In this document: positions 2,217 through 26,783 of the stretch, in pieces
How positions within the stretch are numbered: the stretch's first letter is position 1
Layout of the letters: each line of letters starts with the position of its first letter
From: Nitrospinaceae bacterium
GTDB lineage: Bacteria; Nitrospinota; Nitrospinia; Nitrospinales; Nitrospinaceae
NCBI GenBank assembly: GCA_965223665.1
Contig: OZ245011.1
Coordinates: forward strand, 2,240,001-2,304,000
Length of the DNA stretch: 64,000 nt
Reading direction: 5' to 3'
The notes under the pieces: generated by a model
Told to the model about the DNA's origin: nothing
Seen by the model: only the letters and a program-made list of their open reading frames with translations
Database searches by the model: none
Made by a program: the position numbers and the translations under genes

Positions 2217-3380
2217 ATGAAAGAAATTATTACTAAATCCACATCACGAGTGACGGCTCAAGTTTCCGATATTGCTCTTAGGGAGACTATTACTACACGC
2301 TTGATATTTCGTCCCATCATAATAGACAATCCCAATAATCGTGAAGCTTCTATAAAGGGTAATTTTCTATTTCAAAGAAAATCGAAAAACTCTCAATGGG
2401 AAGATTTTGAAACTACCCCTTTATCTAAGCTTAAAAGTGGGGAAGGTTTTAAGCTTGAACTTAAGTCTAGTGAATTACTTAAATTAGTAGATGAGATTAA
2501 ACCTTTATATGATCTCCATAAAAATGAAGGTGTTCCCAGAGGTCAAAAGAAATTCGTTCGCGCAACCCCACAACTTGAACAACTAGCATCTCTTACTGAT
2601 GATGATATTTCCAATTATTTAGATGCTAATACTACGATTGGTGCAACATTATTAACAAAACTATTAAATTGGGCTATAAACCTCGATGATCCAACCCCTC
2701 TAATCGAACGATTGGTTGAGCTTAATCCTAAATCTCTTGAAAAATTAAATGCTGCAGTGGGGCTGCAAAGTCTAAAAACTGCACTCGCTACTTGGCAGAA
2801 AAACGTGTGCAATTCAGATGAAGAATTTTGGCAGAAGACTTTAACAGAACATTCATTCGTACTAGAGCAAGCATTTTCATGGCCAACTTCAATTGTCAAA
2901 GGAAAGGCATATGTAAGTGGAAAGTCTGTATTTAACACAGGCGGTAATCTAGTAGATTTTTTGATGAAAAACAGCCTAACTCAAAGTGCTGCCCTTATTG
3001 AAATTAAAACACCTTCAACAAATTTAGTGGGACCTGAATATCGTACAGGAATTTACAATATATCAAGTGAGTTATCTGGCTCGATAATGCAAATTTTGAA
3101 TTATAAGCATTCATTGCAAGAAGACTTCACCATTTTAACAAAAGAGACACCTGATCTTTTCGATTCTTTTAATCCACAGTGTGTAGTAATAGTCGGTAAT
3201 ACTGGGAACGAACTAGATAATCAAAATAAGACGAAGTCATTCGAGCTATATCGCCATCAGTTCCAAAGTGTAACAATAATCTCATACGATGAATTGTTTC
3301 AAAAAATTAAAAACCTTATTAGATTACTGGAAAATCCTATTGAAAATGAAAGTTTTGACGAAGCTGAAATTCCTTTTTAA
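2217..3380 (+). CDS. sduA: Shedu anti-phage nuclease (DUF4263)
   Basis: C-terminal EEFWQKTL..DFL..LIEIKTP..ELSGSIMQILNY..IISYDELF pattern of the Shedu PD-(D/E)xK domain; variable N-terminal domain. Confidence 0.85.
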   Translation: MKEIITKSTSRVTAQVSDIALRETITTRLIFRPIIIDNPNNREASIKGNFLFQRKSKNSQWEDFETTPLSKLKSGEGFKLELKSSELLKLVDEIKPLYDLHKNEGVPRGQKKFVRATPQLEQLASLTDDDISNYLDANTTIGATLLTKLLNWAINLDDPTPLIERLVELNPKSLEKLNAAVGLQSLKTALATWQKNVCNSDEEFWQKTLTEHSFVLEQAFSWPTSIVKGKAYVSGKSVFNTGGNLVDFLMKNSLTQSAALIEIKTPSTNLVGPEYRTGIYNISSELSGSIMQILNYKHSLQEDFTILTKETPDLFDSFNPQCVVIVGNTGNELDNQNKTKSFELYRHQFQSVTIISYDELFQKIKNLIRLLENPIENESFDEAEIPF

Positions 3381-4405: not shown

Positions 4406-5701
4406 ATGATGGCAAAAAATCAAAATCAGACAGAATTTGCAAAGCTTCTTAAAAACACAGGGTTTTCCAAGGTAGAGCTTGCCGAACGCATCGGATACAA
4501 CGTCAGAACTATTTACCGGTGGGAGAAAGGAGAAACCCGCCCGAGAAAAGCCATCCTGGATCTTGTCCGTGAAGTAGCAGCTTCTTCCGGAAAAATTCGC
4601 AATCGTTCTCCCAAGGAGTTTGGTTTTAATTTCATTGATCTTTTCGCCGGTATAGGTGGACTCCGGGCAGGGTTTGAAAAAATTGGCGGGAAATGCGTTT
4701 TCACCAGTGAATGGAATGAGCCCTGTCTCCATACCTATCGGGCCAACTTCTCTTGTGATCATGAAATTGAGGGAGATATCACAAAGGTTCCTGAGCACAA
4801 GGTTCCACCTCATGATGTTTTACTGGCGGGTTTTCCCTGCCAGCCTTTTTCCATTGCGGGAGTTTCAAAGAAAAATGCCCTTGGCAGACCACACGGTTTT
4901 TTGTGTGACGCGCAGGGGACCCTGTTTTTTGATGTCGCCCGAATCATTGCGCACCACAAGCCCGCTGTCTTTCTCCTTGAGAATGTAAAAAACCTGATAA
5001 GCCATGACAAGGGAAATACCTTTCGTGTGATCAGGAAAACCCTGGAAGAGGAACTTGGTTATCATATTGACTGGCGGGTAATAAATGCCAAACCCTTTGT
5101 CCCCCAGAACAGGGAAAGAATTTTTATTGCCGGTTTCAGGGAAAATACAAGGTTTGATTTTAATGATCTGGTTTTACCCCCCGAAGAAAACTGGCCTTCT
5201 ATGGTTTCCGTTCTCCATCCGGAAGACGGCTCAGAGCCGGATGAACCACCCTATACCATTGGATCGAGGGGAAAGGTTAATCCCAAATACACCCTTTCTG
5301 AAAAATTATGGACCTATCTTCAAAACTATGCCCAAAAGCATCGCGAAAAAGGCAATGGTTTCGGGTTCGGTCTGGTTGGTAAAAACGACGTAGCCCGAAC
5401 ACTGTCAGCCAGATACTACAAGGATGGTTCTGAAGTTCTGGTACGTCAACGCGGAAGAAGGCCACGCCGCCTGACCCCCCGCGAGTGTGCCCGTCTTATG
5501 GGATTTGATCAGCCAGGGAAACCTCTCTTCCGGATCCCTGTTTCTGATACACAAGCCTATAAACAGTTTGGCAATGCAGTTGTGGTTCCGGTTGTCGAGG
5601 CCGTTGCCGGGTTTATGCTTCCTCATATCCAGCAGGTGATTCATGGAAATTCAAGGCAACAAAAACTTTTTTCTGAAGAGATGCTGTTAGAAGCCGTTTG
5701 A
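4406..5701 (+). CDS. dcm: C5-cytosine DNA methyltransferase (Dcm/M.EcoRII-like, likely CCWGG) with N-terminal HTH
   Basis: [54 protein letters not shown]-terminal [23 protein letters not shown]. Confidence 0.92.
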
Positions 5702-5705
5702 AGCT

Positions 5706-6176
5706 ATGGCTGACATTGTATCCCCCGAAACCCGCAGTCGCATGATGTCCGGAATAAAGGGAAAGGATACTCGCCCTGAACTTTTGATCAGAAAAGGACT
5801 TCATGCCAAAGGACACAGATACCGTCTTCATGTAAAAAGTCTTTCCGGCAAACCTGATCTGGTTTTTCCGAAATACAGGGCTGTTATTCTGGTTCATGGT
5901 TGTTTCTGGCATGGCCATAACTGCCATCTTTTTAAATGGCCATCCACAAGGAAGGATTTCTGGCGTCAAAAGATCACTGGAAATCAGAAAAATGATTCCA
6001 AAAACCTTGCAGCCCTGAAAGAAGATAACTGGAGAGTTATGACCATATGGGAATGTGCCCTCAAGGGCCGCGAACGAATTCCCCTGAATGAAATAATCGA
6101 TAAGGCAGCTGAGTGGCTGTTATCAAACAGGCTCGCAATGGAAATCAGGGGAAGAAAAAAAAGAGATCGGGAATGA
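5706..6176 (+). CDS. vsr: Very short patch repair endonuclease
   Basis: MADIVSPETRSRMMSGIKGKDTRPE, GKPDLV, HGCFWHGH, WECAL. Confidence 0.95.
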   Translation: MADIVSPETRSRMMSGIKGKDTRPELLIRKGLHAKGHRYRLHVKSLSGKPDLVFPKYRAVILVHGCFWHGHNCHLFKWPSTRKDFWRQKITGNQKNDSKNLAALKEDNWRVMTIWECALKGRERIPLNEIIDKAAEWLLSNRLAMEIRGRKKRDRE

Positions 6177-7390
6177 AAAAAGGTTTTCTGTCCGAATATT
6201 TTGAAGGCGTTGCTGCCAAACGATTGAGTGTCGTTGAAGTTGACCCTGCCAGCTCAAACCAGCATGAATTTAATGGAGTGAAAGCCCTGAAACAACTTCT
6301 CGGACCTGAAAGGTTAAATGATATTCCTGTCCGTTTTGTCTGGCTTGGTGAAGAAAACGAAGGTTTGTCTGAAGATTCCCATGTGACCTGGTATGATTCG
6401 CGGGAAAACCATCCGACAAGATCAGAATACCGCCTTTACTTCAAGTCCAACCCGGTCATGGAAATGGCCCGTGAAGGTGATTTGCTGGTTGTTGCCAAAA
6501 GACCTGGTGGTGAACTGATGATAATTATTGCGAGTCAGGGGACTACTATAGAAAACCAGTTGATATGGCTTTTCGGAGTTTCCGTCCAGATAGGGACAGG
6601 TTTTGAGTTTCGGGAGTTGGATGAGCAACAGGATATGGAAGTTGATTTTGCTGTCCGCTTTATTCTGGAAGAACTCGGAATTGAAATTGAGGAACCGGAA
6701 GCCGACCTGTTTGACAGGTTGCTTGAACCTTTTCAGGGCATGTTCCCCAAGACTGCCGAATTTTCTGCCTTTGCAAGAAAAACCCTCTCTGATGTTTCAC
6801 CCATGGATGACCCGGACGCGGCCCTGATAGCCTGGATAGAAAGAGAGGAAAAACTTTTCAGGAGACTGGAACGACACATTGTTTCTGACCGTTTAAAGGA
6901 AGGATTTGCCGGGCCCGAGGGTGCGGATGTAGATGGCTTTATCAGTTTTTCGCTTAGTGTCCAGAATCGCCGAAAATCAAGAATGGGATACTCTCTGGAA
7001 CACCATCTTGAAGAAATATTTTGTTTGCGGGGTATCCGGTATGACAGGAATAAAGTAACTGAAAACAATTCCAAACCGGATTTTTTGTTTCCAGGACAAA
7101 CAGAATATAGGGACCAAAACTTTTCTTCCCTGAAACTTTCCATGCTGGGTGTAAAATCAACCTGCAAGGATCGATGGCGACAGGTTCTTTCCGAGGCCGC
7201 CAGAATACCGGACAAACATCTGCTTACACTGGAACCCGGTATTAGTGAGAACCAGACAAAAGAAATGATGTCCAACCGGCTTCAGCTTGTCATTCCAACC
7301 GGTCTTCATGAGACCTATCAACCTGCCCAGAAGGAATGGCTTATGAATGTAACAGAATTTATCCAACTGGTTCAGGAGCGTCAGGAATGA
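6173..7390 (+). CDS. EcoRII-family type II restriction endonuclease
   Basis: SNQHEFNG N-terminal motif; SVQNRRKSRMG, KPDFLFP, KSTCKDRWRQVLSEA of the EcoRII catalytic domain; ATGA overlap with vsr stop. Confidence 0.88.
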   Translation: MKKGFLSEYFEGVAAKRLSVVEVDPASSNQHEFNGVKALKQLLGPERLNDIPVRFVWLGEENEGLSEDSHVTWYDSRENHPTRSEYRLYFKSNPVMEMAREGDLLVVAKRPGGELMIIIASQGTTIENQLIWLFGVSVQIGTGFEFRELDEQQDMEVDFAVRFILEELGIEIEEPEADLFDRLLEPFQGMFPKTAEFSAFARKTLSDVSPMDDPDAALIAWIEREEKLFRRLERHIVSDRLKEGFAGPEGADVDGFISFSLSVQNRRKSRMGYSLEHHLEEIFCLRGIRYDRNKVTENNSKPDFLFPGQTEYRDQNFSSLKLSMLGVKSTCKDRWRQVLSEAARIPDKHLLTLEPGISENQTKEMMSNRLQLVIPTGLHETYQPAQKEWLMNVTEFIQLVQERQE

Positions 7391-7470: not shown

Positions 7471-8200
7471 AACACTACCCTTCCTTTTTTTCATCTCCGG
7501 CTTGGGCTTGCATCCGTAAACCGAAAGGAGTAGGATTTGGAGTAATTTCCGTTCTATATTATATGGGCTTAGAAATCTGTTAATCCTCATTGGAAAATTT
7601 GATGGCTGAACCTAGTTCCAAAAATCAGGATTCCAAAAACACCAAAACCCACGACACCGTCATGGGCGATAAAGTCGTGGGAGACAAAGTAATAGGCGAT
7701 AAGGTTGGAGGTGACAAGTTTACGGGTGACAAATTTGTTATTGGTATCACCTTAGAAGAACATCACGCGTATTTGCAAAAACGGGAAGCGCAAATCCGCG
7801 CAGAGTTGGCGGAAGAACGCGGGAAAGATCAGGATCGGATTCAGGAATTAGAACTGGAGTTAAGTGCCATTGAAGGCAAACAGGCCAACCTGGAACAATC
7901 TCATAAAGATTATATTGAACAACTGGAAGCTACCAACACGGATTTACAGAAATTCAAAGATCAGTTTTCTCCCGAACAAATGCAGCAAGCCGAAGAAGCT
8001 TTAGCAAGAGGTGATTTATCTGAAGCCGATCAGTTATTTAAAGAACTGGAAGAAAATAAAGAGCGACTGATTTTAATTGAAGAACAAGCCCTGGTCCATT
8101 ATAGGAGAGGAAAAATTGCCCAAGATTCAGTGAACTACCGGGAGGCCTTGAAGCAATACGAACGCGCCTCGCAACTGGCACCAGAGAATGGAACTTATTT
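7471..8200 (+). repeat. Copy 1 of diverged direct duplication (upstream region plus 5' part of TPR gene)
   Basis: Shares GGCTTGGGCTTGCATCCG.AAACCGAAAGGAGTAGGATTTGGA and the coding 5' region with 10148-10880. Confidence 0.9.
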
Positions 8201-9788
8201 AAATTCGACTGGTTTGCTATTTGATACCCTTGGGCAATACGATCGGGCCATTGAATACTACGAGAAAGCGCTTGCCAGTAATCTCAAAACCCTTGGCGAG
8301 AAGCCCCCCAGGGTAGCCTGCATTTGGAATAACCTGGGATTGGCTTTCCGAGACAAGGGTGAATACGACCGAGCCATTGAATACTACGAGAAAGCGCTTG
8401 CCAGTAATCTCAAAACCCTTGGCGAGAAGTCCGCCCAGGTAGCCTACAATTGGAACAACCTCGGAATAGTTTGGGCTGACAAAGGCGATTACGACCGCGC
8501 CATTGAATACTACGAGAAAGCGCTGGGCAATTTTCTCAACACCTTTGGCAAAGAGCACCCTGATGTCGCCCGCTGTTGGAATAACCTGGGATTTGCTTTC
8601 CGAGACAAGGGTGAGTACGACCGCGCCATTGAATACTACGAGAAAGCGCTACACAATGCTGTCAATACATTTAGCGAAGACCATCCTCTTGTCGCCACCT
8701 GTTGGAGCAATCTGGGGGCGACTTGGAATGTTAAGGGTGATCACGACCAGGCCATTGAATACCACGAGAAAGCGCTTGCCAGTGATCTCAAAACCTTTGG
8801 CGAAGACCATCCTAATGTCGCCCGCTGTTGGATCAACCTGGGATTGGTTTTCAAAGACAAGGGTGAGTACGACCGGGCCATTGAATATTACGAGAAAGCG
8901 CTACACAATGCTGTCAATACATTTGGTGAAGACAATCCTCTTGTAGCCACCTGTTGGATCAACCTGGGAGGGGCCTGGAATGCCAAGGGTGATCACGACA
9001 AGGCCATTGAATACTTTGAGAAAGCGCTTCACAGTAATTTGGAAACTTTTGGCGAAGAGCACCCTAATGTCGCCGGCTGTTGGATCAACCTGGGGGCGGT
9101 TTGGAATGATGTCAAGAGTGATCACGACCAGGCCATTGAATACTTTGAGAAAGCGCTGTGCAGTTTTCTCAACACCTTTGGCGAAGAGCACCCTGATGTG
9201 GCCCTCATTTGGATGAACCTCGGAATAGCTTGGGCTGACAAAGGCGATTACGACCGGGCCATTGAATACCACGAGAAAGCGCTTCACAGTAATTTGGAAA
9301 CTCTTGGCGAAAAGCACCCTGATGTGGCCACCTGTTGGACCAACCTGGGAGGGGCCTGGAATGCCAAGGGTGATCACGACCAGGCCATTGAATACTTTGA
9401 GAAAGCGCTTCACAGTAATTTGGAAACTCTTGGCGAAGAGCACCCGGGTTTGGCCCGCATTTGGAATAACCTGGGAGGGGCCTGGAATGCCAAGGGTGAT
9501 CACGACCAGGCCATTGAATACTTTGAGAAAGCGCTACACAATCGACTGGAAACCTTTGGCGAAGATCACCCTGATTTAGCCAGCATTTGGAACAACTTGG
9601 GAATGGCTTGGGCTGACAAAGGGGATTACGACCGGGCCATTGAATATTACGAGAAAACCCTGCTTATTGGTCTAAACACCTTGGGAAAAGATCATCCAAT
9701 GGTGAAATTGGCATTAAAGAATATTGAGGTTATTCATTTAAAAATGAACCCACTCAAATGGTTTTGGAAAAAACTTTGGCCATTTTAA
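7602..9788 (+). CDS. GDKxx-pentapeptide / coiled-coil / 42-aa TPR array protein, paralog 1 (about 12 repeats)
   Basis: ATG 7602 aligns with paralog start MAEP; repeats AxxWxNLGxxWxxKGxYDxAIEYYEKALxxxLxTFGExHPxV. Confidence 0.9.
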   Translation: MAEPSSKNQDSKNTKTHDTVMGDKVVGDKVIGDKVGGDKFTGDKFVIGITLEEHHAYLQKREAQIRAELAEERGKDQDRIQELELELSAIEGKQANLEQSHKDYIEQLEATNTDLQKFKDQFSPEQMQQAEEALARGDLSEADQLFKELEENKERLILIEEQALVHYRRGKIAQDSVNYREALKQYERASQLAPENGTYLNSTGLLFDTLGQYDRAIEYYEKALASNLKTLGEKPPRVACIWNNLGLAFRDKGEYDRAIEYYEKALASNLKTLGEKSAQVAYNWNNLGIVWADKGDYDRAIEYYEKALGNFLNTFGKEHPDVARCWNNLGFAFRDKGEYDRAIEYYEKALHNAVNTFSEDHPLVATCWSNLGATWNVKGDHDQAIEYHEKALASDLKTFGEDHPNVARCWINLGLVFKDKGEYDRAIEYYEKALHNAVNTFGEDNPLVATCWINLGGAWNAKGDHDKAIEYFEKALHSNLETFGEEHPNVAGCWINLGAVWNDVKSDHDQAIEYFEKALCSFLNTFGEEHPDVALIWMNLGIAWADKGDYDRAIEYHEKALHSNLETLGEKHPDVATCWTNLGGAWNAKGDHDQAIEYFEKALHSNLETLGEEHPGLARIWNNLGGAWNAKGDHDQAIEYFEKALHNRLETFGEDHPDLASIWNNLGMAWADKGDYDRAIEYYEKTLLIGLNTLGKDHPMVKLALKNIEVIHLKMNPLKWFWKKLWPF
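8190..9700 (+). repeat. Tandem ~126-bp coding repeats (42-aa TPR units)
   Basis: GCCATTGAATAC...GAGAAAGCGCT recurs every 126 nt (one unit 129 nt). Confidence 0.92.
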
Positions 9789-10016
9789 TAAGAAATTTCG
9801 ATACAAAAAAATATTTTGAAAAATAATTAGAATTTCATTAAAGCCATACCTTATAAACAACTTCAGCAGGAAAAAAATGACTGGCGTAACTAATTGGCTA
9901 CACTCCAGCTAATTTTCTCACCTCTCTTATTTAACTTTTGTTGGTTCTGCCAAACCTCTAATTATCTCTCCCTTTTTCAAATTCAATTTTTGTTCTGGGA
10001 AACAGCGAATATTTGA

Positions 10017-10121
10017 TTACTTCCTATCCAATTTGTTTTCTATCCGGTCGAGTTGTTTCCCAAATCGTTCATGGGATTCATCGTTGGATTTGCGGAATTC
10101 CTCAAAGACATCTTTTTCCAA
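10017..10121 (-). pseudogene. 3' remnant of a homolog of the prophage terminal gene at 12063-12302
   Basis: Translates LEKDVFEEFRKSNDESHERFGKQLDRIENKLDRK*, against LEKDVFEEFRKSNDESHERFGKQLDRIEGKLDGR* in the intact gene; 5' half absent. Confidence 0.9.
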
Positions 10122-10147
10122 TCTCTCCTTTCTTCATTGCTCCAATG

Positions 10148-10880
10148 AACCTACCCCCTTCCCTTTTTCCACTCCCGGCTTGGGCTTGCATCCGAAAACC
10201 GAAAGGAGTAGGATTTGGATTAATTTCCTTTCTATATTATATGGGCTTAAAAATCTGTTTATTCTCATTGGAAAATTATATGGCTGAACCTAACTCTAAA
10301 GATCAAAAATCTAAAAAAGCCAATCCCAAAACAGAAGACACCGTCATCGGCGATAATGTGGTGGGCGACAAAATATTAGGCGATAAGATTGGAGGCGACA
10401 AGTTTACGGGTGACAAATTTGTCATTGGTATCACCCTGGAAGAACACCATGCGTTTTTGCAAAAACGGGAAGCGGAGATCCGCGCCGAGTTGGCTGAAGA
10501 GCGTGGGAAAGATCAAGATCGGATTCAGGAATTGGAACTGGAATTAAGTGCCATTGAAGGCAAACAGGCCAACCTGGAACAATCTTATAAAGATCACATT
10601 GAACAGCTGCAAGCCACCAATACGGATTTACAGAAGTTCAAAGATCAGTTTTCTCCCGAACAAATGCAACAAGCTGAGGAAGCTTTAGCTAGGGGTGATT
10701 TATCTGAGGCCGATCAGTTATTTAAAGAACTGGAAGAAAATAAAGAGCGCTTGTCTTTAATCGAAGAACAAGCTTTGGTTCATTATAGGAGAGGAAAAAT
10801 TGCCGAGGAAGCCGCGGACTATCGTGAGGCCCTGAAGCAATTCGAACGGGCGGCGCAACTGGCACCGGAGAATGGAATTT
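10148..10880 (+). repeat. Copy 2 of diverged direct duplication
   Basis: Aligns with 7471-8200. Confidence 0.9.
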
Positions 10881-12046
10881 ATTTATCGGATACCGGCGTT
10901 CTTTATTTAACCCTTGGTCAATACAACCAGGCCATTAAATTCCATGAGAAAGCGCTCAAGAGCGATTTGAAAACCTTTGGAGAAGATCATCCTAGTGTAG
11001 CTTATGATTGGAACAACCTGGGTGCGACCTGGGTTAAAAAAGGAGATTACGACCGGGCCATTGAATACTACGAGAAAGCACTTGCCAGTATTCTGAAATC
11101 CTTGAGTGAAGACCACCCTAACGTCGCCGCATGTTGGAACAACCTGGGATTGATTTGGGCTGGCAAAGAAGATTACGACCAGGCTATTAAATACTACGAG
11201 AAAGCGCTCTCCAGTACTCTAAAATCCTTGGGTGAAGAACACCCTAAAGTCGCCACAGTATGGAGCAACCTGGGATTGGTTTGGGCTGGCAAAGGAGATT
11301 ACGACCGGGCCATTGAATACTACGAGAAAGCGCTTCACAGTGATCTCAACACCTTTGGCGAGGATCATCCCAGTGTCGCTACAAGGTGGAACAACCTAGG
11401 AGGGGCTTGGGGAAACAAAGAAGATTACGACCGGGCCATTGAATACTACGAGAAAGCGCTTCACAGTGATCTCAACAACTTTGGTGAAGAACACCCTACA
11501 GTCGCCACAGTTTGGAGGAACCTGGGAGGGGCTTGGGAAAACAAAGAAGTTTACGACCGGGCCATTGAATACTACGAGAAAGCCCTTCACAGTGATCTCA
11601 ACACCTTTGGCGAGGATCACGACAGAGTTGCCGAAATTTGGAGCAACCTGGGAGGGGCTTGGGATAAAAAGGGAGATTACGACCAGGCCATTGAATACTA
11701 CGAGAAAGCACTTGCCAGTATTCTGAAATCCTTGAGTGAAGACCACCCTAAAGTCGCCGCATGTTGGAGCAACCTGGGAGTGGCTTGGGCTGGAAAAGGA
11801 GATTACGACCGGGCCATTGAATACTACGAGAAAGCGCTTCACAGTGATCTCAACACCTTTGGCGAGGATCACCCCAGTGTCGCCACAAATTGGACCAAGC
11901 TTGGAGTGGCTTGGGCTAAAAAAGGAGATTACGACCAAGCCCATAATCACATCGCGAAAGCGTCGATGATTTTTGAGAAGATTGGTTTAAATGAAATTGC
12001 AGTGATGGTACAAAGCGAATTCGATGCCATGAGGAAACAAAAGTAA
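10280..12046 (+). CDS. GDKxx-pentapeptide / coiled-coil / 42-aa TPR array protein, paralog 2 (about 9 repeats)
   Basis: ATG 10280 (MAEPNSK) aligns with paralog 1; the ORF-track extension to 10013 runs through non-coding and remnant DNA. Confidence 0.9.
   Translation: MAEPNSKDQKSKKANPKTEDTVIGDNVVGDKILGDKIGGDKFTGDKFVIGITLEEHHAFLQKREAEIRAELAEERGKDQDRIQELELELSAIEGKQANLEQSYKDHIEQLQATNTDLQKFKDQFSPEQMQQAEEALARGDLSEADQLFKELEENKERLSLIEEQALVHYRRGKIAEEAADYREALKQFERAAQLAPENGIYLSDTGVLYLTLGQYNQAIKFHEKALKSDLKTFGEDHPSVAYDWNNLGATWVKKGDYDRAIEYYEKALASILKSLSEDHPNVAACWNNLGLIWAGKEDYDQAIKYYEKALSSTLKSLGEEHPKVATVWSNLGLVWAGKGDYDRAIEYYEKALHSDLNTFGEDHPSVATRWNNLGGAWGNKEDYDRAIEYYEKALHSDLNNFGEEHPTVATVWRNLGGAWENKEVYDRAIEYYEKALHSDLNTFGEDHDRVAEIWSNLGGAWDKKGDYDQAIEYYEKALASILKSLSEDHPKVAACWSNLGVAWAGKGDYDRAIEYYEKALHSDLNTFGEDHPSVATNWTKLGVAWAKKGDYDQAHNHIAKASMIFEKIGLNEIAVMVQSEFDAMRKQK
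10873..11960 (+). repeat. Tandem 126-bp coding repeats (42-aa TPR units)
   Basis: GATTACGACCGGGCCATTGAATACTACGAGAAAGC recurs at 126-nt period. Confidence 0.92.
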
Positions 12047-12062
12047 ACCAAAATATATTCCT

Positions 12063-12302
12063 CTACCGCCCATCCAACTTTCCTTCAATTCGATCCAATT
12101 GTTTGCCAAATCTTTCATGGGATTCATCGTTGGATTTACGGAATTCTTCGAAGACATCTTTTTCCAGTTTTTCATTATCAAGTTTTTCAATCCGATCATG
12201 AGCCCGATCGATTCGATTATTGATCCGCTTCACCAACCAACCAATGGCGGCCACGATTCCACCCCCGATCCACATCCAAACGTCTTTATGATTTCCGTCC
12301 AT
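12063..12302 (-). CDS. Small single-TM + coiled-coil phage protein (holin/XhlA-like candidate)
   Basis: VWMWIGGGIVAAIGWLV TM then RIDRAHDRIEKL...LDRIEGKLD; last gene of late operon. Confidence 0.6.
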   Translation of the reverse strand: MDGNHKDVWMWIGGGIVAAIGWLVKRINNRIDRAHDRIEKLDNEKLEKDVFEEFRKSNDESHERFGKQLDRIEGKLDGR

Positions 12303-12372: not shown

Positions 12373-13731
12373 TCAAGGTGTGTGAACAATTTGATTTCCT
12401 GATTTCCAGTTCGCGGATCCATCCCATGTTTCCAACCGGCCGTCGCTGGTGTTGTAAATAGTTAATCCCCCAAATGGCGCTCCATTAGGCCAAAGAAAAT
12501 CCCGTTCCCCCGAAGTCCAACCTATAGGCTTAAACCAATGGCTGGTCCAAATCGACATATCATCGCAAAAGTAATCGTTTTTACTGGACTCCCAGGTGTA
12601 ACCATAAATTTCTGTTCCACGCCCATCGATCCAGGCGTTCCGCGTATTATCTTCATTGGGGCAAGCAAAAAACCGGTTTTGCTCATTACCGAATTGAGTA
12701 TTGACCGGCGGTGTACGCGTGATATAAATTCCGGTGGGCGTGGCTAAAGGAAAGGTACCAAACTGTATGTTGTCCGCAGTGCAATGAACAAAGGTGTTGG
12801 TGTCGCCGCCCTCGATATGATATGCCACGTTTTCGTGCTGAACCTGGCATTGAATGAACAGGTTACTGTTAACAATCGAAGCCCCACTGATTTTATCTGC
12901 CAGGTAAATCCCCCGGCGGCCGCGTCGAATAACAATATGTAAAAACGTATTCCAATAATGCTGTCCGTGATCTGATTGATTTATTCCATCCCATCCACCA
13001 AACATCACAATGCCATCACTGCAACGTTCCATTTTAATGTTGTGGTAAAACCCGTAAGAATACCGAGCGACCTGGGTTGGACTGTTGACATGGTCGGGAC
13101 AGATCGCCAAGCCAATCACGTGGTCGGTCGTGTTGGTGTTGGGAATCTCACCATTGATGGAAAACCCTCCAACTTCGGCATAAGCGAGTTCGCATCGGAC
13201 GGTAAACATTGCATTGGCGGTGTTACTTCTTACCGGAATTAAATGGGTGAGTCCTGGACCGGCTCCTAATAATTGAACCCGCGGCTCGGTGCTAGTAATC
13301 GTGTTTCTATAATCGGGAATATGGATCCCGTTTTCCAGCGTCTTCCCTTCCCAGATTTCGGTGGCCGTGGGAAGTCCAACGATTTTATATTTTCCGGGTG
13401 GCATGTAAACTTTACCGCCCTTGGGATCCGCCACGGCCGCGTCGATCGCCGCTTGAATGGCGCCACGGTCATCGGCGACACCATCCCCCACGGCGCCATA
13501 ATCCATCACATTGTAGATATGGGCAAACGGTGAGATCGCATTGATCCGGAGTTCATTGGTGAGAACCTCAATATTGATATTAGTTCCGGCCAATAACGAT
13601 TTAAGGTACATGATGAGGCCGGATTTATGCGAATACCAGCCATGACCGGTCCCCAGATTATCCAGGTCGTTAACCTCACCTCCACCCGGACCCGCCGCTA
13701 CGGATCCCCCATTTCCTACCCAATAAGTCAT
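12373..13731 (-). CDS. Tailspike / pectate-lyase-3-like beta-helix depolymerase
   Basis: YNVMDYGAVGDGVADDRGAIQAAIDAA...GGKVYMPPGKY entry motif of beta-helix proteins. Confidence 0.8.
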   Translation of the reverse strand: MTYWVGNGGSVAAGPGGGEVNDLDNLGTGHGWYSHKSGLIMYLKSLLAGTNINIEVLTNELRINAISPFAHIYNVMDYGAVGDGVADDRGAIQAAIDAAVADPKGGKVYMPPGKYKIVGLPTATEIWEGKTLENGIHIPDYRNTITSTEPRVQLLGAGPGLTHLIPVRSNTANAMFTVRCELAYAEVGGFSINGEIPNTNTTDHVIGLAICPDHVNSPTQVARYSYGFYHNIKMERCSDGIVMFGGWDGINQSDHGQHYWNTFLHIVIRRGRRGIYLADKISGASIVNSNLFIQCQVQHENVAYHIEGGDTNTFVHCTADNIQFGTFPLATPTGIYITRTPPVNTQFGNEQNRFFACPNEDNTRNAWIDGRGTEIYGYTWESSKNDYFCDDMSIWTSHWFKPIGWTSGERDFLWPNGAPFGGLTIYNTSDGRLETWDGSANWKSGNQIVHTP

Positions 13732-14040
13732 TTATCGCTCGATGATTTGAAAATAAATTGTACGTTCTGCTTTTTGGCCGTTATCTGTAACAATTTGACA
13801 GGTCAATCCGTGTGTATTATTTAACGTTCCGTCTTTTACGCGAACGGTAACAATTCCATTCGCCTGAGACTCTTGAACTTTGGTGATCCCGCCGGCCTCT
13901 GGTGTAAGCGTAAAATCAAGAATCGATTCCTCTTCCTCCAACCAATCATTCCAATCGATGCTGTAATCCAATTCTTCATCTTTATCTTTAAAAATGGTCG
14001 GGCCGCGGGTTTTATCTTCAAAAAAACTTGTTGTGCTCAT
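13732..14040 (-). CDS. Phage fibre/tail adaptor-like protein
   Basis: KDKDEELDYSIDWNDWL...TCQIVTDNGQKAERTI motif typical of small phage adaptor proteins. Confidence 0.6.
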   Translation of the reverse strand: MSTTSFFEDKTRGPTIFKDKDEELDYSIDWNDWLEEEESILDFTLTPEAGGITKVQESQANGIVTVRVKDGTLNNTHGLTCQIVTDNGQKAERTIYFQIIER

Positions 14041-16460
14041 TGATTCACCTCAACTTTATAAACACGATTTTCATATGGGATCGTATATTTCCGGATCTCT
14101 TCAGGGACCGCATAAGTGCGAAGTGGATCCACATCCAAAATCCAAACCAATAGAGTATTTGGATCTATACCCAAGGCACTAGCAGCTGCAGCCGACGGAG
14201 TTAAAGTGATCGGCCCTAAAAAATAATTCGGATCCAAACTTGTGACGCGAGTTCCGGCCGCTACGGGTTGAATAAAAATTCCGCCGGAAAATACTGAGGG
14301 ATCCACAACCAGTGATTTAGAAACGGCCGGTCCCGGTGAGAGGGTGATCCCTCCTAACTCAATAACAGGATCTTGGCCGATGCTTATAACGTTGGCTGGA
14401 TTGGGTGAAACCGTCAGACCGCCCAGAATTAGATTTCCATCCAAAGCATTGACGATGGCGGCCGCGGATCCCGGATTGAGTACTAATCCCCCTAACACCG
14501 TTCCAGGATCCACGGCCAAGGCTCGCAGCCCGGAAACATTACCACTAATTGTGATACTACCCAAAATAACCACCGCTTCGGTGGCGAATACTTTTGCGAT
14601 CGCAGGATTGGGTGAAATACGAATACTTGTATCCACATTGGGATCGATTACCAAGGCCCGGGAAGCTGCAGTGGTTGAAATGATGGTGATCCCACCCAGC
14701 ACCACACCCGGATCTAAACCCAAAGCCACGGCCGCCGCGGTTCCACCGGTTAAAGTAATTCCGCCTGACTCCACTGTGGGGTTCAGTGCGGCAGCAATAA
14801 CCGACGCGATCGATGGGTTGACCAGGATTCCACCCAGCACTACACCCGGATCCACGCCCTCAGTGCTGACAGCTGCTATTTCACCACTTATTGTGATTCC
14901 ACCTAAAATACTATTCGGATCTAAACCGAGTGCGCGGGCTGCGGCCGGATCCGGATTTAAAACTAAACTTGTGTCCACATTGGGATCGATGACTAATGCC
15001 CGGGCCGCTGCAGTTCCGCCGTTTAAAGTAATCCCACCTAACTGAACTGTGGGATTTAATGCGGTGGCGATGGCGGACGTGATCGACGGGTTGACCAGGA
15101 TTTCCCCAATCACCACTTGCGGATCCACACCCAACGCCTTGGCAGCTGCTATTTCTCCACTAATTGTGATTCCGCCTAAAATAATATTCGGATCAAAACT
15201 GAGTGTGCGGGCTGCGGCTAAGGTGGGCGTTAAGGTAATCCCTCCTAACTGGACTGAGGGATCCATCACTAAGGACCGAGCGGAGGCCGTGTTAGGAATA
15301 ATGGTGATTCCACTCAACACAGTGTTGGGATCCACCACAGCGGCTTTGGCCGATGCCGGTCCGGGTGTGACCGTGACACCGCTGGAAGGCTCCACCACCA
15401 AATAGGCGACCATGTTTTCGATTCTAAGATCCGCCGGACCCACAACTTTTCCACCCATTTGGAAAAACTGGGAAAGTGTCGGCACCACGTTGGCCGCTTC
15501 AGAAACTTTCATCAAAATGGTATTGGTGGCGTTGACGGTGACCACATCTTCCGTGAGCGTGTCCACATTGTTTCCGTAGATTATCGAATAAGTTGTGGAT
15601 CCACCGGTTCCTGCAGAAAAATCACCAATGATTTTACAACCCAGAACGTTGGTTCCACTTGCGTTGGAATCGCCACTCGGTCCTGACCGGGTACCACTAT
15701 TGGTGATCATTTCACCGGATCTCGGATCGCCTGTGTATTCTCCACGGTTACCGGCGCCAGTGGTGAATGGCGCCTGGGAAACTTTGCCCCAATCGCCCAC
15801 GTCAAAGGCGTCGCCCTGATCCTGGGTGCCACCATCGGTTTTTTGGTACATCAAGACATCAACGTCCCCCGCCGGTCCGTCGGTGATGTCTGTGGCATCG
15901 CTGTACCACAACCATTTTGAAAACCTTTGTGTTTTACCACCTCCAGAGGTTTTGAGTTCCAAATAATCGACGGTATTATTTCCGGTTTTGAAATCACAGG
16001 CTACGACGTTTGACACCTCGGTGCCATCGACTTCCATTTTAAAGGCGCCGCTGTTGGCATTTTGGAAGTAAATTTTTAATCGGTGTTTTTGCCCCAACGT
16101 GAACGGGTTGGTGATGGTATCTTTAACCGCTGCTTTAGAATCGATGACCTGGACATCACCGGTGGACTGAATGACACGCAATTCTAAAATTAAATTTCCG
16201 CCGGTATCAATGATATTGATGATATCGGAATCGCCAGTGTGGCCGGTATTGACCCGGGTGTAATAACCAATCACCACATGATTGTCCCCCGCCTTGGCGA
16301 CGGCATCAAAAATCAAAAACCGGGCACGGTCCCCTTGTTCACACACCAATTCGTAATCGCTGCCAATTAAAGAAACGACGGGTGTATTCGTGATCCCGTT
16401 GGTGACATCGGTTAAGTCCTGCGTTAAGAAAGCAAAGATCTGATTTAGGGTGAAAGCCAT
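14037..16460 (-). CDS. Phage fibre-like protein: N-terminal beta-sandwich domain plus ~28-aa GGITL..DP repeats
   Basis: About 15 repeats of GGITxxxxxAAAxALxxDPxVxL in C-terminal half; position among tail accessory genes. Confidence 0.7.
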   Translation of the reverse strand: MAFTLNQIFAFLTQDLTDVTNGITNTPVVSLIGSDYELVCEQGDRARFLIFDAVAKAGDNHVVIGYYTRVNTGHTGDSDIINIIDTGGNLILELRVIQSTGDVQVIDSKAAVKDTITNPFTLGQKHRLKIYFQNANSGAFKMEVDGTEVSNVVACDFKTGNNTVDYLELKTSGGGKTQRFSKWLWYSDATDITDGPAGDVDVLMYQKTDGGTQDQGDAFDVGDWGKVSQAPFTTGAGNRGEYTGDPRSGEMITNSGTRSGPSGDSNASGTNVLGCKIIGDFSAGTGGSTTYSIIYGNNVDTLTEDVVTVNATNTILMKVSEAANVVPTLSQFFQMGGKVVGPADLRIENMVAYLVVEPSSGVTVTPGPASAKAAVVDPNTVLSGITIIPNTASARSLVMDPSVQLGGITLTPTLAAARTLSFDPNIILGGITISGEIAAAKALGVDPQVVIGEILVNPSITSAIATALNPTVQLGGITLNGGTAAARALVIDPNVDTSLVLNPDPAAARALGLDPNSILGGITISGEIAAVSTEGVDPGVVLGGILVNPSIASVIAAALNPTVESGGITLTGGTAAAVALGLDPGVVLGGITIISTTAASRALVIDPNVDTSIRISPNPAIAKVFATEAVVILGSITISGNVSGLRALAVDPGTVLGGLVLNPGSAAAIVNALDGNLILGGLTVSPNPANVISIGQDPVIELGGITLSPGPAVSKSLVVDPSVFSGGIFIQPVAAGTRVTSLDPNYFLGPITLTPSAAAASALGIDPNTLLVWILDVDPLRTYAVPEEIRKYTIPYENRVYKVEVNQ

Positions 16461-16774
16461 TAGTCTTTTATGGGGTTGATGTCAATATCGAAATCATTTC
16501 TTTCGGTGTTCCAGGTCACGGTGACGGTATCGGAGCGGAAAACTATTTTGTCCCCCTCGTAAAACTCTTTTAGCTTTTTAGGATCCGAAGTTTTTCGCGG
16601 GTCTCCCTCTTTGATTTGGCTAATGTCTATTTTGTAATCGATGATAGCCTGCAACCCGATTTGTAATGCCGCGGCCTTTTCGGCGTTGTTTCTTCCGGGC
16701 AATAGGGAATAGTCGATGGACTGGCCATCGACCATAATTCCTTCTTTAGTTCTTTCAATCTTGCGGACTGGCAT
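16460..16774 (-). CDS. Hypothetical phage protein
   Basis: ORF tightly packed in late operon. Confidence 0.65.
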   Translation of the reverse strand: MPVRKIERTKEGIMVDGQSIDYSLLPGRNNAEKAAALQIGLQAIIDYKIDISQIKEGDPRKTSDPKKLKEFYEGDKIVFRSDTVTVTWNTERNDFDIDINPIKD

Positions 16775-16780
16775 TTAGAA

Positions 16781-17236
16781 CTACTCGGTTAACCGTAGTT
16801 CACAATCCTGCAGAGTGAGTGGTTGCCCATCACTGACAATACGGTTTGAGCCAAGATCAAACCAGGCCAGGATTTCCCGGTTTGCCACCGTCACATTATC
16901 GTCTGTCAAAACTGCATAACGAGCACCATTCCCACTTGCAGGTAAATTTCCCCCGGAAGCCGTCCACACTAAATCCTTAATTTGTATTGATGACAAATCA
17001 CCTGTGTCATCTTCATTGATGACATCAAAATCAGTGGCGTTTTTAGCTAATTGAATTCCACCCGAAAGATAACCGTTACCTGCGGGAATTTCTCCCAGGT
17101 CACTCAGGACGTTAGAATCCGGACCTGGCGCCACCGAATCATCTACTAAAGCCATGTAATAATTTGCCGGGGCGGCCACCCCGCGAAATTTCTCCTCTAA
17201 CATTTTGAATTTTCCTCGATTGGTTACTCCACCCAT
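16781..17236 (-). CDS. Conserved phage virion/fibre-base protein
   Basis: EIPAGNGYLSGG, DLVWTASGG, ARYAVL pattern of small structural proteins preceding fibre genes; AGGAGG RBS. Confidence 0.65.
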   Translation of the reverse strand: MGGVTNRGKFKMLEEKFRGVAAPANYYMALVDDSVAPGPDSNVLSDLGEIPAGNGYLSGGIQLAKNATDFDVINEDDTGDLSSIQIKDLVWTASGGNLPASGNGARYAVLTDDNVTVANREILAWFDLGSNRIVSDGQPLTLQDCELRLTE

Positions 17237-17248
17237 AGTAATACCTCC

Positions 17249-18517
17249 TTATTGAGAGTTTTTGAGTTTTGCTTTAAAACAACTCACCCCGGCGGGCGCA
17301 CCACGGGTAAGTTCCTGGTTATCTAATTCCACATAGTTTTCATGAAACAATTCCAAAGTGTTTTCCCCATCTCTTTGCATTTGCCCCAGCTGCCGGACAA
17401 AGTCTGAAACCGGATCCACAAGCACCACCGTTTTTCCGGTGAGGTCGTTATTCATGAACGGATGTGGGATTAAGTTCATATCTGCATTTTTGATGGAATG
17501 ATTGATTTCCACCCAATCAAACTTTTCATCCTTTGCCAACAATCCCCCATTGACCAGGCGATCAAGCAATAGAGGTGCGTTCTTGGTTTCTTCCAATGTG
17601 GGTTTGTTCTCATACTGTTTAATAAATTTCTTTTTGGTGATTGGATCGATTCGGTCCGGACGGATTTTTGTCGGGCCATTGTTGGCCCACGGTGGTTCCG
17701 GAGCGTGGTACATGGCTTCGATCTTTCCCGATCCGTTTTCGACCAGGGCAAATAAAAACCCATGCACGTCGCCATCGTTTTGACTTAATTGATAAGGTGG
17801 GGACGCTTGAATGTAACGCTGTTGAGCATCGGCCGTACCTACTGTGCCGCCCTGATAATCAATATACATATTGATCAAGGTCGTATAAGTCGATGGCAAA
17901 ATTGCTAGAGAACCACTCAATTTTGCATTCACCGGTTGAGTGTTAATACTGTGTTTAATTTGCGGATAAAATCCATATTCTCCACCGGGCAGGGTTAAAT
18001 TAACACCCGGCAACCCCAGAAACCCGGTTGATACTTCACCGATGGCCGTTTTTAAAGAGTTTTGATTTACGCTATCCGCCGGTGGAATGAGATCGTCCCA
18101 CACCGGGGTTTGATTGGGACCCGCGCTTTTTAAAATTTGCCCAGCCACACCGGCACCTAAATCGATGGGAACTCCATTGAGATCGTAAACTAAAACACCA
18201 CCCCCCGTTCCATGCGCGATTTTTGCTAACGTGACCGCATCATCCAGGATCAAAACGGTGGTAATGATTCCATTTTGATTCGGTAATAGATTTAAATAAT
18301 CCGCATCAAGAGTCCCAACTTTATTCCAAGCGGTATTCGCTCCATTACGTTTCCAGAGTTCATTGACGTTTCTATTTCGCCACCACATACCCGGATAAGC
18401 CGGGTTGGGCTCATCTGTCCCATCAAACATTGTCACCAAGGCGTCGTTGATATCATTATTTTGCTGACGGAAAAGTGCCCGGGAAATATTTTGAATAAAC
18501 ATGTTTGGCGTGGTCAT
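17249..18517 (-). CDS. Tail fibre protein
   Basis: Follows tail tip gene; INDAL..MFDGTDEP..AYPGMWW..LWKRNGANTAW N-terminal anchor; DDAVTLAKIA repeat. Confidence 0.7.
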   Translation of the reverse strand: MTTPNMFIQNISRALFRQQNNDINDALVTMFDGTDEPNPAYPGMWWRNRNVNELWKRNGANTAWNKVGTLDADYLNLLPNQNGIITTVLILDDAVTLAKIAHGTGGGVLVYDLNGVPIDLGAGVAGQILKSAGPNQTPVWDDLIPPADSVNQNSLKTAIGEVSTGFLGLPGVNLTLPGGEYGFYPQIKHSINTQPVNAKLSGSLAILPSTYTTLINMYIDYQGGTVGTADAQQRYIQASPPYQLSQNDGDVHGFLFALVENGSGKIEAMYHAPEPPWANNGPTKIRPDRIDPITKKKFIKQYENKPTLEETKNAPLLLDRLVNGGLLAKDEKFDWVEINHSIKNADMNLIPHPFMNNDLTGKTVVLVDPVSDFVRQLGQMQRDGENTLELFHENYVELDNQELTRGAPAGVSCFKAKLKNSQ

Positions 18518-22182: not shown

Positions 22183-22660
22183 CTAGTAACCTTTCATGGC
22201 GGTAAAAATTAACGATCCGGTTTTTAAACAAGCGTTGATGATAATTGGCAATACTGGAATCGATTCCTGATTCCGTATGAATCAGAAACCCTGGCGCAAG
22301 GATCAAACCAACGTGCATGTCAGCTGCCATCCACTTGCCTTCCACTTTGTAATACCCTTTCATAAAGGCCACATCCCCCAGGCGCTCTTTACCGTATGGG
22401 ATCAAGTTCCATTCCGGATTGTGCAAACAGTTGTCGGTCAATGTGGCTTGAACTTCTTTTCCGGATTTAGCCGATTCGTAGGTGGTTAAATAATCGGGAA
22501 GTTCGAGTCCAAATTGCTCTTTCCAAATCAACCGACACAGGCCGTAACAGTCGCAGCCGTCGCGACCGCGGCCACGCTCTTTAAATGGGATACCGATATA
22601 TTGTTCTACCCAATCAGAATATACCGACCCGGTTTTCCATCCATAAAGTTCCATAATCAA
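22163..22660 (-). CDS. NlpC/P60 tail assembly peptidase (gpK-like)
   Basis: YIGIPF...GRGRDGCDCYGL, HVG, LIH catalytic motifs. Confidence 0.88.
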   Translation of the reverse strand: MIMELYGWKTGSVYSDWVEQYIGIPFKERGRGRDGCDCYGLCRLIWKEQFGLELPDYLTTYESAKSGKEVQATLTDNCLHNPEWNLIPYGKERLGDVAFMKGYYKVEGKWMAADMHVGLILAPGFLIHTESGIDSSIANYHQRLFKNRIVNFYRHERLLDGSLSA

Positions 22661-23133
22661 AACAGCGCGGGAAACCCACTTGGCACAAACGCATGGGGCG
22701 GGAACGGTTTGGATTCCAAATGCTCCACCGATAATTCACCCGTAACCACCAATTGGTTGTAATCCGCTTCCTTCAATTTAAAATCCGGTAAAGACATTTC
22801 GACCGTATCCGGTGTGCTGGCCAAAACGATTTCGATCAACACGTCCACCGCCGAGGTGATACTGCGCAAGGCCTGGACGATTTGTCGATCGACGTTTCCG
22901 ATCGTGAGCGTGGCCACCGGCGGCCGGTCTTCACTTTCGTTGGGTAATGGCAATTCAAACGGGAAGGCCTGGAACGTGTTCCCGTTGGAAACCAGGTTCA
23001 CCTTGTCATCACAAACGCGAATCGGTTCGGCCAAATCGGCATGTGAAAGAGTGAGCAAGGTAATAAACGCCTCTTTGGTTTCCTGGGCCGTGACGGCCTT
23101 CATTGCATTGGTTGAAAAACTTCTTCCCGTCAT
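22657..23133 (-). CDS. Minor tail protein (DUF1833/gpL-like)
   Basis: LLTLSH, FQAFPFELPLP, LTIGNVDR, FP...F.PSGFPALF. Confidence 0.75.
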   Translation of the reverse strand: MTGRSFSTNAMKAVTAQETKEAFITLLTLSHADLAEPIRVCDDKVNLVSNGNTFQAFPFELPLPNESEDRPPVATLTIGNVDRQIVQALRSITSAVDVLIEIVLASTPDTVEMSLPDFKLKEADYNQLVVTGELSVEHLESKPFPPHAFVPSGFPALF

Positions 23134-23480: not shown

Positions 23481-23483
23481 GAC

Positions 23484-25682: not shown

Positions 25683-25683
25683 A

Positions 25684-26177: not shown

Positions 26178-26211
26178 AAAAAATTCCTTTTGAATTTATT
26201 TAAAAATCAAA

Positions 26212-26770: not shown

Positions 26771-26783
26771 TTTGGTTTCCTTT

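Follow-up and report, generated by a model that had tools for sequence, protein, structure and literature searches.

What can a repeat array that resembles the sensor of an immune receptor do for its cell when the nucleoside triphosphatase (NTPase) of such receptors is missing? This question is raised by two tandem genes of a Nitrospinaceae bacterium, here called A and B, each of which encodes an array of 42-residue tetratricopeptide repeats (TPRs) behind a common N-terminal module. Both genes lie in the 64,000-nucleotide stretch of DNA that was analysed as a whole (hereafter the window), which corresponds to positions 2240001-2304000 of contig C1 in the organism's own genome, G000. The sensors of fungal and bacterial NOD-like receptors (NLRs), in which the NTPase turns ligand binding into oligomerisation, are characterised by internally conserved arrays whose binding positions vary, and highly internally conserved 42-residue TPR-like repeats were reportedly described by Marold et al. 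in 2015. A sequence-only reading of the locus had taken A and B for rapidly diversifying recognition proteins of an NLR-like architecture.

A and B are not NLRs. They are tandem cassette duplicates within one genus-expanded family, and they are best described as a new NTPase-less and effector-less form of internally conserved TPR arrays of the kinesin-light-chain (KLC) type, carried on an apparently widespread but unnamed module. As to function, we tentatively propose, with somewhat less than even confidence, a role in recognition, or as sensor, adaptor or decoy, in a conflict network of the anti-phage or cell-death kind.

Architecture of the two genes

Gene A (7602..9788, plus strand) runs from an ATG at 7602 to a stop at 9788 and encodes 728 residues, and gene B (10280..12046, plus strand) runs from an ATG at 10280 to a stop at 12046 and encodes 588 residues. 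In A, a Gly/Asp/Lys pentad-repeat tail (7662..7745, residues 21-48, MGDKVVGDKVIGDKVGGDKFTGDKFVIG; read from the sequence), whose motif also occurs in paralogs, is followed by a helical N-module (7746..8237) with the sequence IGITLEEHH and three helices, after which cryptic TPR-like units lead to the first canonical repeat. Eleven canonical 42-residue repeats occupy 8238..9626, of which the seventh (8994-9122) has 43 residues, and the gene closes with a degenerate capping repeat that carries a Trp-rich tail (ending in NPLKWFWKKLWPF) and the stop codon (9627..9788). B has the same N-module, eight canonical repeats at 10922..11929, delimited by helix-B anchoring and Tandem Repeats Finder, and a cap at 11930..12046 that begins YDQAHNHIAKASMIFEKIGLNE. 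All of these parts are read from the plus strand.

This anatomy, in which a disordered pentad tail and a constant helical N-module precede a single unbroken solenoid of KLC-type TPRs, is near certain, as are the family membership and the variation pattern of A and B described below. An AlphaFold2 model of B, built from an alignment of 38 paralogs and relatives, has a mean pLDDT of 89.8 and a pTM of 0.83; residues 1-45, the pentad tail, have a pLDDT below 50, and helices 53-74, 79-97 and 99-118 lead into a helical solenoid that is uninterrupted to the C-terminus. Foldseek with this model returned TPR solenoids only (consensus CTPR, OGT, LGN, KLC1), with KLC1 (7ai4_A) superposing at a TM of 0.78 and a root-mean-square deviation of 4.0 Å at 32% identity. 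A sequence search of solved structures found consensus TPRs, KLC1/2, the bacterial KLC-like TPR 5o01/5o09, which we take to be a link between cytoskeleton and membranes, and the fungal 42-residue repeat 4y6c/4y6w (4y6c, E 4.6e-13). For the N-terminal part, no family at a meaningful E-value was found by Pfam in the first 183-185 residues of A and B or by NCBIfam in the first 212 residues of A.

The duplication reaches beyond the coding sequence. The upstream parts of the two cassettes, each with the promoter or 5' region and the first codons (7478..7645 for A and 10156..10323 for B, plus strand), form a direct repeat, D5, of 86% identity; 7642-7941 and 10326-10625 are 89% identical in DNA; and an element downstream of each gene (10009..10130 after A, 12055..12176 after B, plus strand) forms a direct repeat, D6, of 80% identity, of which 10017-10095 also matches spots in the sister genome G001. 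At the protein level, the N-termini of A and B are 86% identical over 212 residues and 90% over the first 160, with 86-89% identity in the underlying DNA; the shared N-terminus of about 200 residues was thus correctly seen from the sequence, and its description as near-identical was mildly overstated. A longer open reading frame (ORF) for B, from a TTG at 10013, was rejected as probably non-coding because homology with A begins about 124 nt upstream of the ATG at 10280 and the extension has no relatives. Antisense or overlapping ORFs within the arrays (8217-8558, 8901-9503 and 11396-11950) are by-products of the repeats.

Repeat class and internal variation

Tandem Repeats Finder reports a period-126 array of 11.3 copies with 77% matches in A (8238-9663) and one of 8.1 copies with 80% matches in B (10922-11936); a higher-order period spans three repeats in A (378 nt) and two in B (252 nt). 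Repeats start 42 residues apart in 18 of the 19 intervals and 43 residues apart in the remaining one. A tally anchored on the helix-B motif gives 11 canonical repeats and one degenerate cap in A and eight and one in B, in keeping with the 12 and nine repeats counted in the sequence-only reading. Pfam assigns TPR_12 to A with an E-value of 8.8e-137 (446 bits) and to B with 4.7e-87 (286.7 bits) against a cut-off of 30.1, which excludes a chance origin of the arrays, and TPR_10 to A with 5.6e-88 (287 bits) and to B with 1.6e-57 (190.4 bits). With profile scores above the gathering threshold and a 42-residue helix-turn-helix solenoid, both proteins belong to the KLC-type TPRs.

They share with the kinesin-light-chain TPR (PF13424/PF13374) the 42-residue period and the conserved Asn of N-L-G, but the repeats of A and B are much more alike among themselves than those of KLC, an unnamed N-module and a Gly/Asp/Lys pentad tail stand in front of the array, and the heptad-repeat N-terminus of KLC was not identified in either protein. 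The best NCBIfam match of both, made through the KLC-type repeats, is the FxSxx-COOH TPR protein (NF040586; 286.9 bits for A, 216.9 bits for B); however, both scores fall under its curated cut-off of 300 bits and only model positions ~422-745 of 830 are matched rather than the whole model, and a Pfam scan of the flanking ORFs saw no vWA-MoxR or peptide-processing neighbours beside A and B.

The pattern of variation was read from an alignment of the 19 canonical repeats of A and B, numbered from the Y of YDRAIEYYEKAL as position 1; identities, synonymous diversity, ratios of nonsynonymous to synonymous substitution (dN/dS) and site counts given here and below are hand counts from the printed alignment columns. 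Helix B (YDRAIEYYEKAL), which is close to the global TPR consensus, and the A-x-x-W-x-N-L-G motif of helix A form a near-fixed scaffold, and A4, I5, E9, K10, A11, L12, A27, W30, L33, G34 and K40 are invariant. Column entropy peaks at position 25 (3.0 bits), followed by 28 (2.75), 35 (2.55), 15 and 38 (2.5) and then 39, 31, 29 and 13. Mean pairwise identity between repeats is ~65%, made up of ~19% at these nine variable positions and ~77% at the other 33. Seven of the nine belong to helix A and the residue before it and the other two to the eight-residue extension of helix B, so that the concentration of variation in helix A, as claimed from the sequence, holds column by column; all of the variant motifs cited for it (CIWN, YNWN, RCWI, LIWM, TCWT and TVWR; LAFRD, GAWNA, IVWAD and GAWEN) are present.

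When W30 is taken as canonical TPR position 4, the variable sites become TPR positions 33, 2, 3, 5, 9, 12 and 13, and repeat positions 25, 28, 31, 35, 38 and 39 coincide with the listed concave-face positions 33, 2, 5, 9, 12 and 13. In the TPR statistics of Magliery and Regan (PMC1261162), positions 2, 5, 9, 12, 13, 33 and 34 are given as the most variable in TPRs at large and as facing the concave groove, and HOP is described there as holding peptides via positions 2, 5, 6, 9, 12 and 13. The claim that the variable helix-A positions line the groove is therefore borne out by canonical numbering with respect to that list. The further step of treating the pattern as a signature of NLR sensors is weakened by the same source, since positions that vary in TPRs of every function cannot by themselves mark an immune sensor.

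Probable growth and recombination of the arrays

In the DNA alignment of the 19 repeats, mean column identity is 81%. Synonymous diversity among repeats that share a residue is ~0.10 in codons 1-11 and ~0.37 in the 16 other conserved codons, and the helix-B codons are nearly uniform (ATT 19/19, GAG 19/19, AAA 19/19, GAA 17/17, GCC 18/19), which bears out the earlier remark that helix B is almost invariant even in its DNA. The repeats are mosaics: A9 equals A10 in codons 9-21 and 32-42 and differs from it in 10 codons elsewhere, and the variant segments of the two are found again in A8 and A11. Subtypes also recur, with endings of the type GGAWNAKGD in A6, A9 and A10, WADKGD in A2, A8 and A11, and WAGK.D in B2, B3 and B7, and the closest pairs are A9/A10 (76%), B4/B8 (83%) and B2/B7 (86%). 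These features fit arrays that may have grown by duplication of blocks of two to three repeats and by recombination anchored in the constant segment.

The combination of one N-terminus with two different arrays can also arise in another way, by gene conversion or domain shuffling between older paralogs rather than by fast evolution of the arrays. On this explanation the neighbouring 5' regions and N-modules would have been homogenised or swapped, and the arrays and caps would derive from different paralog lineages. The stretch of 86-89% DNA identity that spans the upstream regions and N-modules (7478-7941 and 10156-10625), together with the 80% identical element after both genes, speaks for it, as do the mosaic repeats such as the A9/A10 segments found again in A8 and A11. 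So do the caps, which are of different types in A and B: that of A also occurs in paralogs such as C1:2121406, and that of B is common to a copy on contig C5, which makes conversion or shuffling of the 5' half a live alternative. The silent diversity of helix B, about 4-fold lower than that of the rest, is as expected of a recombination or conversion anchor, although it could also reflect codon preference. We regard this history as quite possible, if on balance slightly doubtful; as an account of the pattern's origin, it can be combined with either of the functional readings weighed below.

Comparison of the sister genomes points to turnover of A and B between them, of whatever cause. The closest relative of A and B in G001 (P0003) has three repeats only and 62% identity, and no syntenic ortholog was found there, only short pieces of 65-83% identity. 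Four sequencing runs from one study hold the stretch, three of them from one sample and none of them an RNA run; the Logan contigs are short, with a depth of ~2-7, and contain no insertions, deletions or joints inside the arrays, a depth too shallow to judge repeat-number polymorphism. In one metagenome contig of run X3, the end of cassette B (12188) is linked to the start of cassette A (7475) across 27 other letters (depth 6.55, shorter side 57, likeness threshold 90), a weak hint at a variant in which the cassettes are ordered differently or are more numerous. A dispersed element of ~50 bp (12311-12376), situated in an unsupported ORF (12099-12461) immediately behind cassette B, has dozens of 82-100% identical copies in G001 and a contig depth of 45-100 compared with 2-7 nearby; it looks like a repetitive extragenic palindromic (REP) element or a miniature inverted-repeat transposable element (MITE).

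Comparison with NLR sensors

Scans of A, B and their N-termini with Pfam and NCBIfam found no NTPase family, whether NACHT or NB-ARC/STAND. Since the NTPase that defines NLRs was looked for and is absent, and an N-terminal effector or adaptor domain is likewise missing, A and B fall outside the NLR and STAND proteins. Of the NLR-like sensor without an NTPase that the sequence had suggested, the lack of the NTPase stands, while the sensing and signalling part does not follow from proteins with no effector and no evident output.

The likeness to NLR and STAND sensors (NB-ARC-TPR, NACHT-WD and Avs) lies in the sensor-like C-terminal array, in the expansion at the level of the genome and in relatives that carry TIR or caspase domains; the differences are the missing NTPase and the missing N-terminal effector. 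With the 42-residue TPR-like repeats of fungal and bacterial NLRs (4y6c, 4y6w), the arrays share a near-constant scaffold, a small number of variable positions, block duplication and mosaics, as far as these are set out by Dyrka et al. (bioRxiv 10.1101/2020.01.06.895854), and by canonical numbering the variation is confined to a few positions of the binding face in A and B as well. However, units of that repeat class are given there as 80-90% identical to each other, whereas the 19 repeats of A and B average ~65% and their closest pairs reach 76-86%, and neither protein has an NB-ARC or NACHT domain.

The gene family and its distribution

In the own genome, 17 ORFs match the first 205 residues of A, which comprise the N-module and a TPR-like unit, and 16 of them are true members; a caspase domain is present in one of these and a TPR array in each of the other 15. 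The 17th, from contig C5, is a kinase-TPR protein whose match is confined to a TPR-like piece, and it was set aside. This contig carries a 735-residue ORF (C5:2475-4682, L015) in which Ser/Thr-kinase motifs (HRDLKPGN and DFG) were recognised by eye and which has some ten very similar 34-residue TPRs (AYNNRG.VY.DLK.YQQAL.DYD.AI.LDPN), a second and different conserved TPR array. Many members of the family stand in tandem or overlap (2119823/2121406; 2193871/2196052/2197536; 1419759/1421272; 2057052/2058743). The closest paralog of A and B, on contig C5, has an N-module that is 84% identical and 12 repeats and, like A and B, has by eye no signal-peptide-like start.

A profile of the module gave 17 matches in G000, 11 in G001 of the same genus, and at least one in seven of the 39 other genomes of relatives. 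Against a representative library of 1.84 billion proteins, the same profile found 647 relatives at E<=1e-3, 296 at E<=1e-10 and three at E<=1e-30 (HMMER), and the module, which has neither a Pfam nor an NCBIfam name in our scans, is by this measure apparently widespread. TPR_12 was found in 67 of the 107 top representatives scanned, and no NTPase is among the 25 most frequent of the 50 families matched in these 107 relatives. Typical distant members have a conserved hydrophobic helix with a Gly patch, a Gly-rich stretch ending in IGITLEQYE, the module, and then TPR_12 or another C-terminal part; the best named relative is a protein from a Nitrospinaceae metagenome-assembled genome (L021) with 59% identity.

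Other routes returned little. A word-indexed search found no match for residues 1-205 of A and only two matches, in the own and the sister genome, for the N-module alignment, blanks that reflect the index, since the full HMMER scan recovered 647 relatives. A cluster look-up of 10 relatives returned no names, and a protein atlas queried with the N-module gave TPR clusters only, at scores of 0.83 or less.

Links to caspases and TIR domains

One paralog (C1:2057052-2058752) has the same N-terminal motif and module with a Peptidase_C14 domain in place of the TPRs (E 5.8e-19). Its best NCBIfam match is the family named 'caspase, EACC1-associated type', with an E-value of 2.4e-31 and 108.9 bits, below the cut-off of 140. 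This caspase paralog of 564 residues is the downstream gene of an operon (C1:2057052-2060854; L011:12053-15855, minus strand) whose upstream gene is a signal-anchored TPR paralog of 703 residues; the two overlap by 4 nt and are translationally coupled, and their mature N-termini share the motif GNQxGDIxNNxGxxxxGDxxxGDKV. Complex prediction with the N-terminal portions of these two operon partners gave a score of 0.00, which is no answer and no evidence either way.

EACC1 is a pore former that is activated by protease in antiviral defence, as shown experimentally in the account of Evans et al. 2025 (bioRxiv 10.1101/2025.11.14.688446). The paralog pair resembles the two-gene membrane system of EACC1 and its caspase, as outlined by Kaur et al. 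2020 (PMC7159879), in that the gene with the membrane or signal anchor comes first and is translationally coupled to a caspase gene on its 3' side, and many distant relatives of the family have a hydrophobic helix with a Gly patch of the kind described there for EACC1. A and B themselves differ from it in that they have no such helix and no caspase neighbour, and the caspase of the paralog lies under its cut-off. No match to the EACC1 model at E<=0.01 was found among six proteins scanned, including A, B and the two distant relatives P0027 and P0009. The short Gly-rich motif that is common to the caspase and TPR genes recalls, in logic only, the bacterial amyloid signalling motifs (BASS).

TIR domains form the second link. 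Nine relatives were picked from 150 listed because their module starts after residue 150. Of these, three have an N-terminal TIR_2 domain, a further one, of 2301 residues, contains a metallophosphatase domain, and in the other five no domain was recognised at the N-terminus. Relatives that carry TIR include P0009, P0038, P0062 and a protein of genome G034; a TIR-module-Sel1-repeat protein of 853 residues is encoded by a genome of the same order. A TIR/TPR pair without an NTPase, BcTir/BcTpr, is described as protective against phage (bioRxiv 10.1101/2023.05.26.542521), and the TIR-module-TPR fusions among the relatives resemble it, as presented in that source, in combining TIR chemistry with TPRs and no STAND NTPase. 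A and B themselves differ from it, as Pfam detects no TIR or NADase domain in them or in their flanking ORFs; the two TIR_2 matches of the own genome (C1:1771872 and C1:3033298) are far from the window.

Genomic neighbourhood

A and B were said from the sequence to stand between an island of restriction-modification and Shedu genes and a prophage, and the annotation agrees. Upstream on the plus strand are Shedu SduA (2217..3380; Pfam SduA_N and SduA_C, PADLOC SduA E 2.6e-130) and, by Pfam, a set (4406..7390) of Dcm methylase (4406-5701), Vsr (5706-6176) and an EcoRII-like endonuclease (6113-7390); an Endonuclease I is also found upstream. Downstream on the minus strand is a phage structural module (12373..35031) with a pectate-lyase-like fibre, Gp77 adaptor, GpJ-like tip, tape measure, capsid/protease, lambda-type portal, terminase gpA and a gpZ-like protein. 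A 250-residue ORF between Shedu and Dcm (3507-4259) has no Pfam or PADLOC match, and a second Shedu (C2:33477-33941; SduA_C, E 6.4e-31) lies on a 37-kb contig of 43.5% GC.

This position raises the alternative that a mobile element carries A and B as its cargo, as a moron at the border of a prophage or as an island gene, and that they serve this element, for example in superinfection exclusion or anti-defence. The block from 4 to 34 kb has a GC content of ~46%, compared with ~35% from 36 to 64 kb and 38% for the genome, the two genes abut the tail-fibre end of the phage structural module, and their closest paralog is on the small, 26-kb contig C5. Yet no integrase and no att-like direct repeats were found within the window; other paralogs, at 41-43% GC, also lie above the genome, so that composition accounts for part of the excess; another 13 paralogs lie on the chromosome away from phage genes; and C5 has no plasmid or phage hallmark among its 10 ORFs scanned. 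We consider such a cargo role very unlikely.

Some further features of the window deserve mention. In the phage tail region, an 807-residue ORF without a Pfam match (14037-16460) contains internal direct repeats (14542-15218; 244 nt at 78% plus shorter families). At the end of the phage module (34498-39379), which has no integrase, GC falls from ~47% to ~31-39%, and between the module and tRNA-Glu/tRNA-Lys (39197-39379) lie a 534-residue protein with TPRs of the 34-residue type (35271-36875) and a 433-residue ORF with a C-terminal DnaA_N domain (37764-39065). Further on, a single ORF of 1068 residues (46829-50035) combines an IPP transferase (MiaA-like) with TPRs and a C-terminal SLT lytic transglycosylase; this may be an unusual fusion, or else the read-through of two genes.

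Function of A and B

The conflict role that we tentatively propose would work as follows. Each array would bind peptides or proteins through a modular surface, with the specificity determined individually in every repeat. The constant N-module may couple the array to partners or to the membrane, and the network would contain A and B as its sensor, adaptor or decoy subunits. Effectors would act in trans or, in other members of the family, in cis, namely the EACC1-associated-type caspase in this genome and TIR in other lineages. The proposal draws on the caspase paralog coupled to a TPR paralog, on TIR in relatives, on the location of A and B beside Shedu and Dcm/Vsr/EcoRII, on the shared Gly-rich motif, on the turnover of A and B between sister genomes, and on the precedents of the antiviral EACC1-caspase and TIR/TPR systems. 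The connection to immunity that was made from the sequence thus stands at the level of the family, with its caspase operon and TIR fusions, and not for A and B themselves, which have no effector.

Several observations weigh against this proposal. No effector or enzymatic domain was found in A and B, and none is supplied by the neighbouring genes (Pfam, PADLOC); neither sequence contains a hydrophobic helix or transmembrane segment; and on A and B PADLOC matches only its generic 'TPR' model, plus coiled-coil noise. The variability of the groove positions is that of TPRs in general, and the identity among the repeats is below the range given for the NLR class. Nor was rapid diversification confirmed. 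For five hand-picked pairs out of 171 (A4/A6, A9/A10, B4/B8, B2/B7 and A1/A2), a rough dN/dS at the variable codons gives omega values of ~0.5, 3.3, 1-2, 4.1 and 1.4, with whole-repeat values of 0.2 to 2; these figures scatter around 1, rest on 1-8 synonymous changes per pair, are confounded by mosaicism and are not significant.

The paralogs add to these points. Paralog C1:2193871 and its ortholog in the sister genome, P0005, are 79% identical overall and have the same eight repeats; their TPR parts are 90% identical (34 differences in 338 residues) and their N-modules only ~73% (48 differences in 180), and in the seven canonical repeats seven of 63 'variable' sites differ compared with 24 of 231 others. 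The groove of this protein is therefore under the same constraint as its scaffold and shows no accelerated change. A and B present the opposite picture, with modules (86-90%) more alike than the whole proteins (71%). Signal-peptide-like N-termini were seen by eye in seven of the 16 paralogs, and the paralogs' neighbourhoods hold MlaE/MlaD, CBM96 proteins, a subtilase, ORFs with RHS repeats, a sigma-54 activator and more TPR genes, which are not defence genes.

The groove residues that one paralog keeps between species, the signal-peptide-like starts and the neighbours MlaE/MlaD, CBM96, subtilase and RHS speak at the same time for a different function, namely that the family consists of non-immune scaffolds or adaptors, a lineage-specific expansion of KLC-like TPRs in envelope, secretion or cell-surface assembly. 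Every repeat would then have one constant endogenous partner, and the differences between repeats would stem from the variety of these stable ligands and not from an arms race. The variation of positions 2, 5, 9, 12 and 13 in all TPRs, as reported in PMC1261162, agrees with this, as do the existence of a solved bacterial KLC-like TPR (5o01/5o09) and the general wealth of TPR_12 genes in the genome. Against it stand the caspase and TIR fusions of the same N-module, the strong difference between the sister genomes (17 and 11 matches; 8-12 and three repeats), the lack of an ortholog of A and B in the sister genome, and their place in a block of 46% GC with restriction-modification and phage genes in a genome of 38%. 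A scaffold function of this kind is a serious candidate, though we think it rather doubtful, and we keep to the conflict role as our tentative preference.

A bolder form of the conflict role is an immune receptor system without an NTPase switch, in which the constant N-terminal unit would be the adaptor that links a repertoire of sensors to effectors; we consider it unlikely. The Gly-rich, beta-prone motif and the helical module would together form a homotypic, possibly templating adaptor, and a genome would encode a germline repertoire of at least 15 TPR sensors, all with groove 'codes' of their own. The effectors, in trans or in cis, would be the EACC1-associated-type caspase, TIR or a membrane-inserting helix, and A and B would be the newest sensors of the repertoire, associated with mobile elements.

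Implications

The novelty of A and B lies in an NLR-type array on a widespread module that is elsewhere fused to TIR or caspase, with no NTPase seen in the scans (the 25 commonest families of 107 relatives). Their 42-residue repeats, in which an idealised scaffold displays nine variable positions, would offer a natural template for the design of binders. Should the two proteins be ordinary scaffolds, they would serve as a warning that 'hypervariable groove positions' stem from the general architecture of TPRs and are by themselves no marker of an immune receptor. If A and B are sensors, repeat-based recognition could be coupled to death effectors through a simpler adaptor that requires no NTPase.

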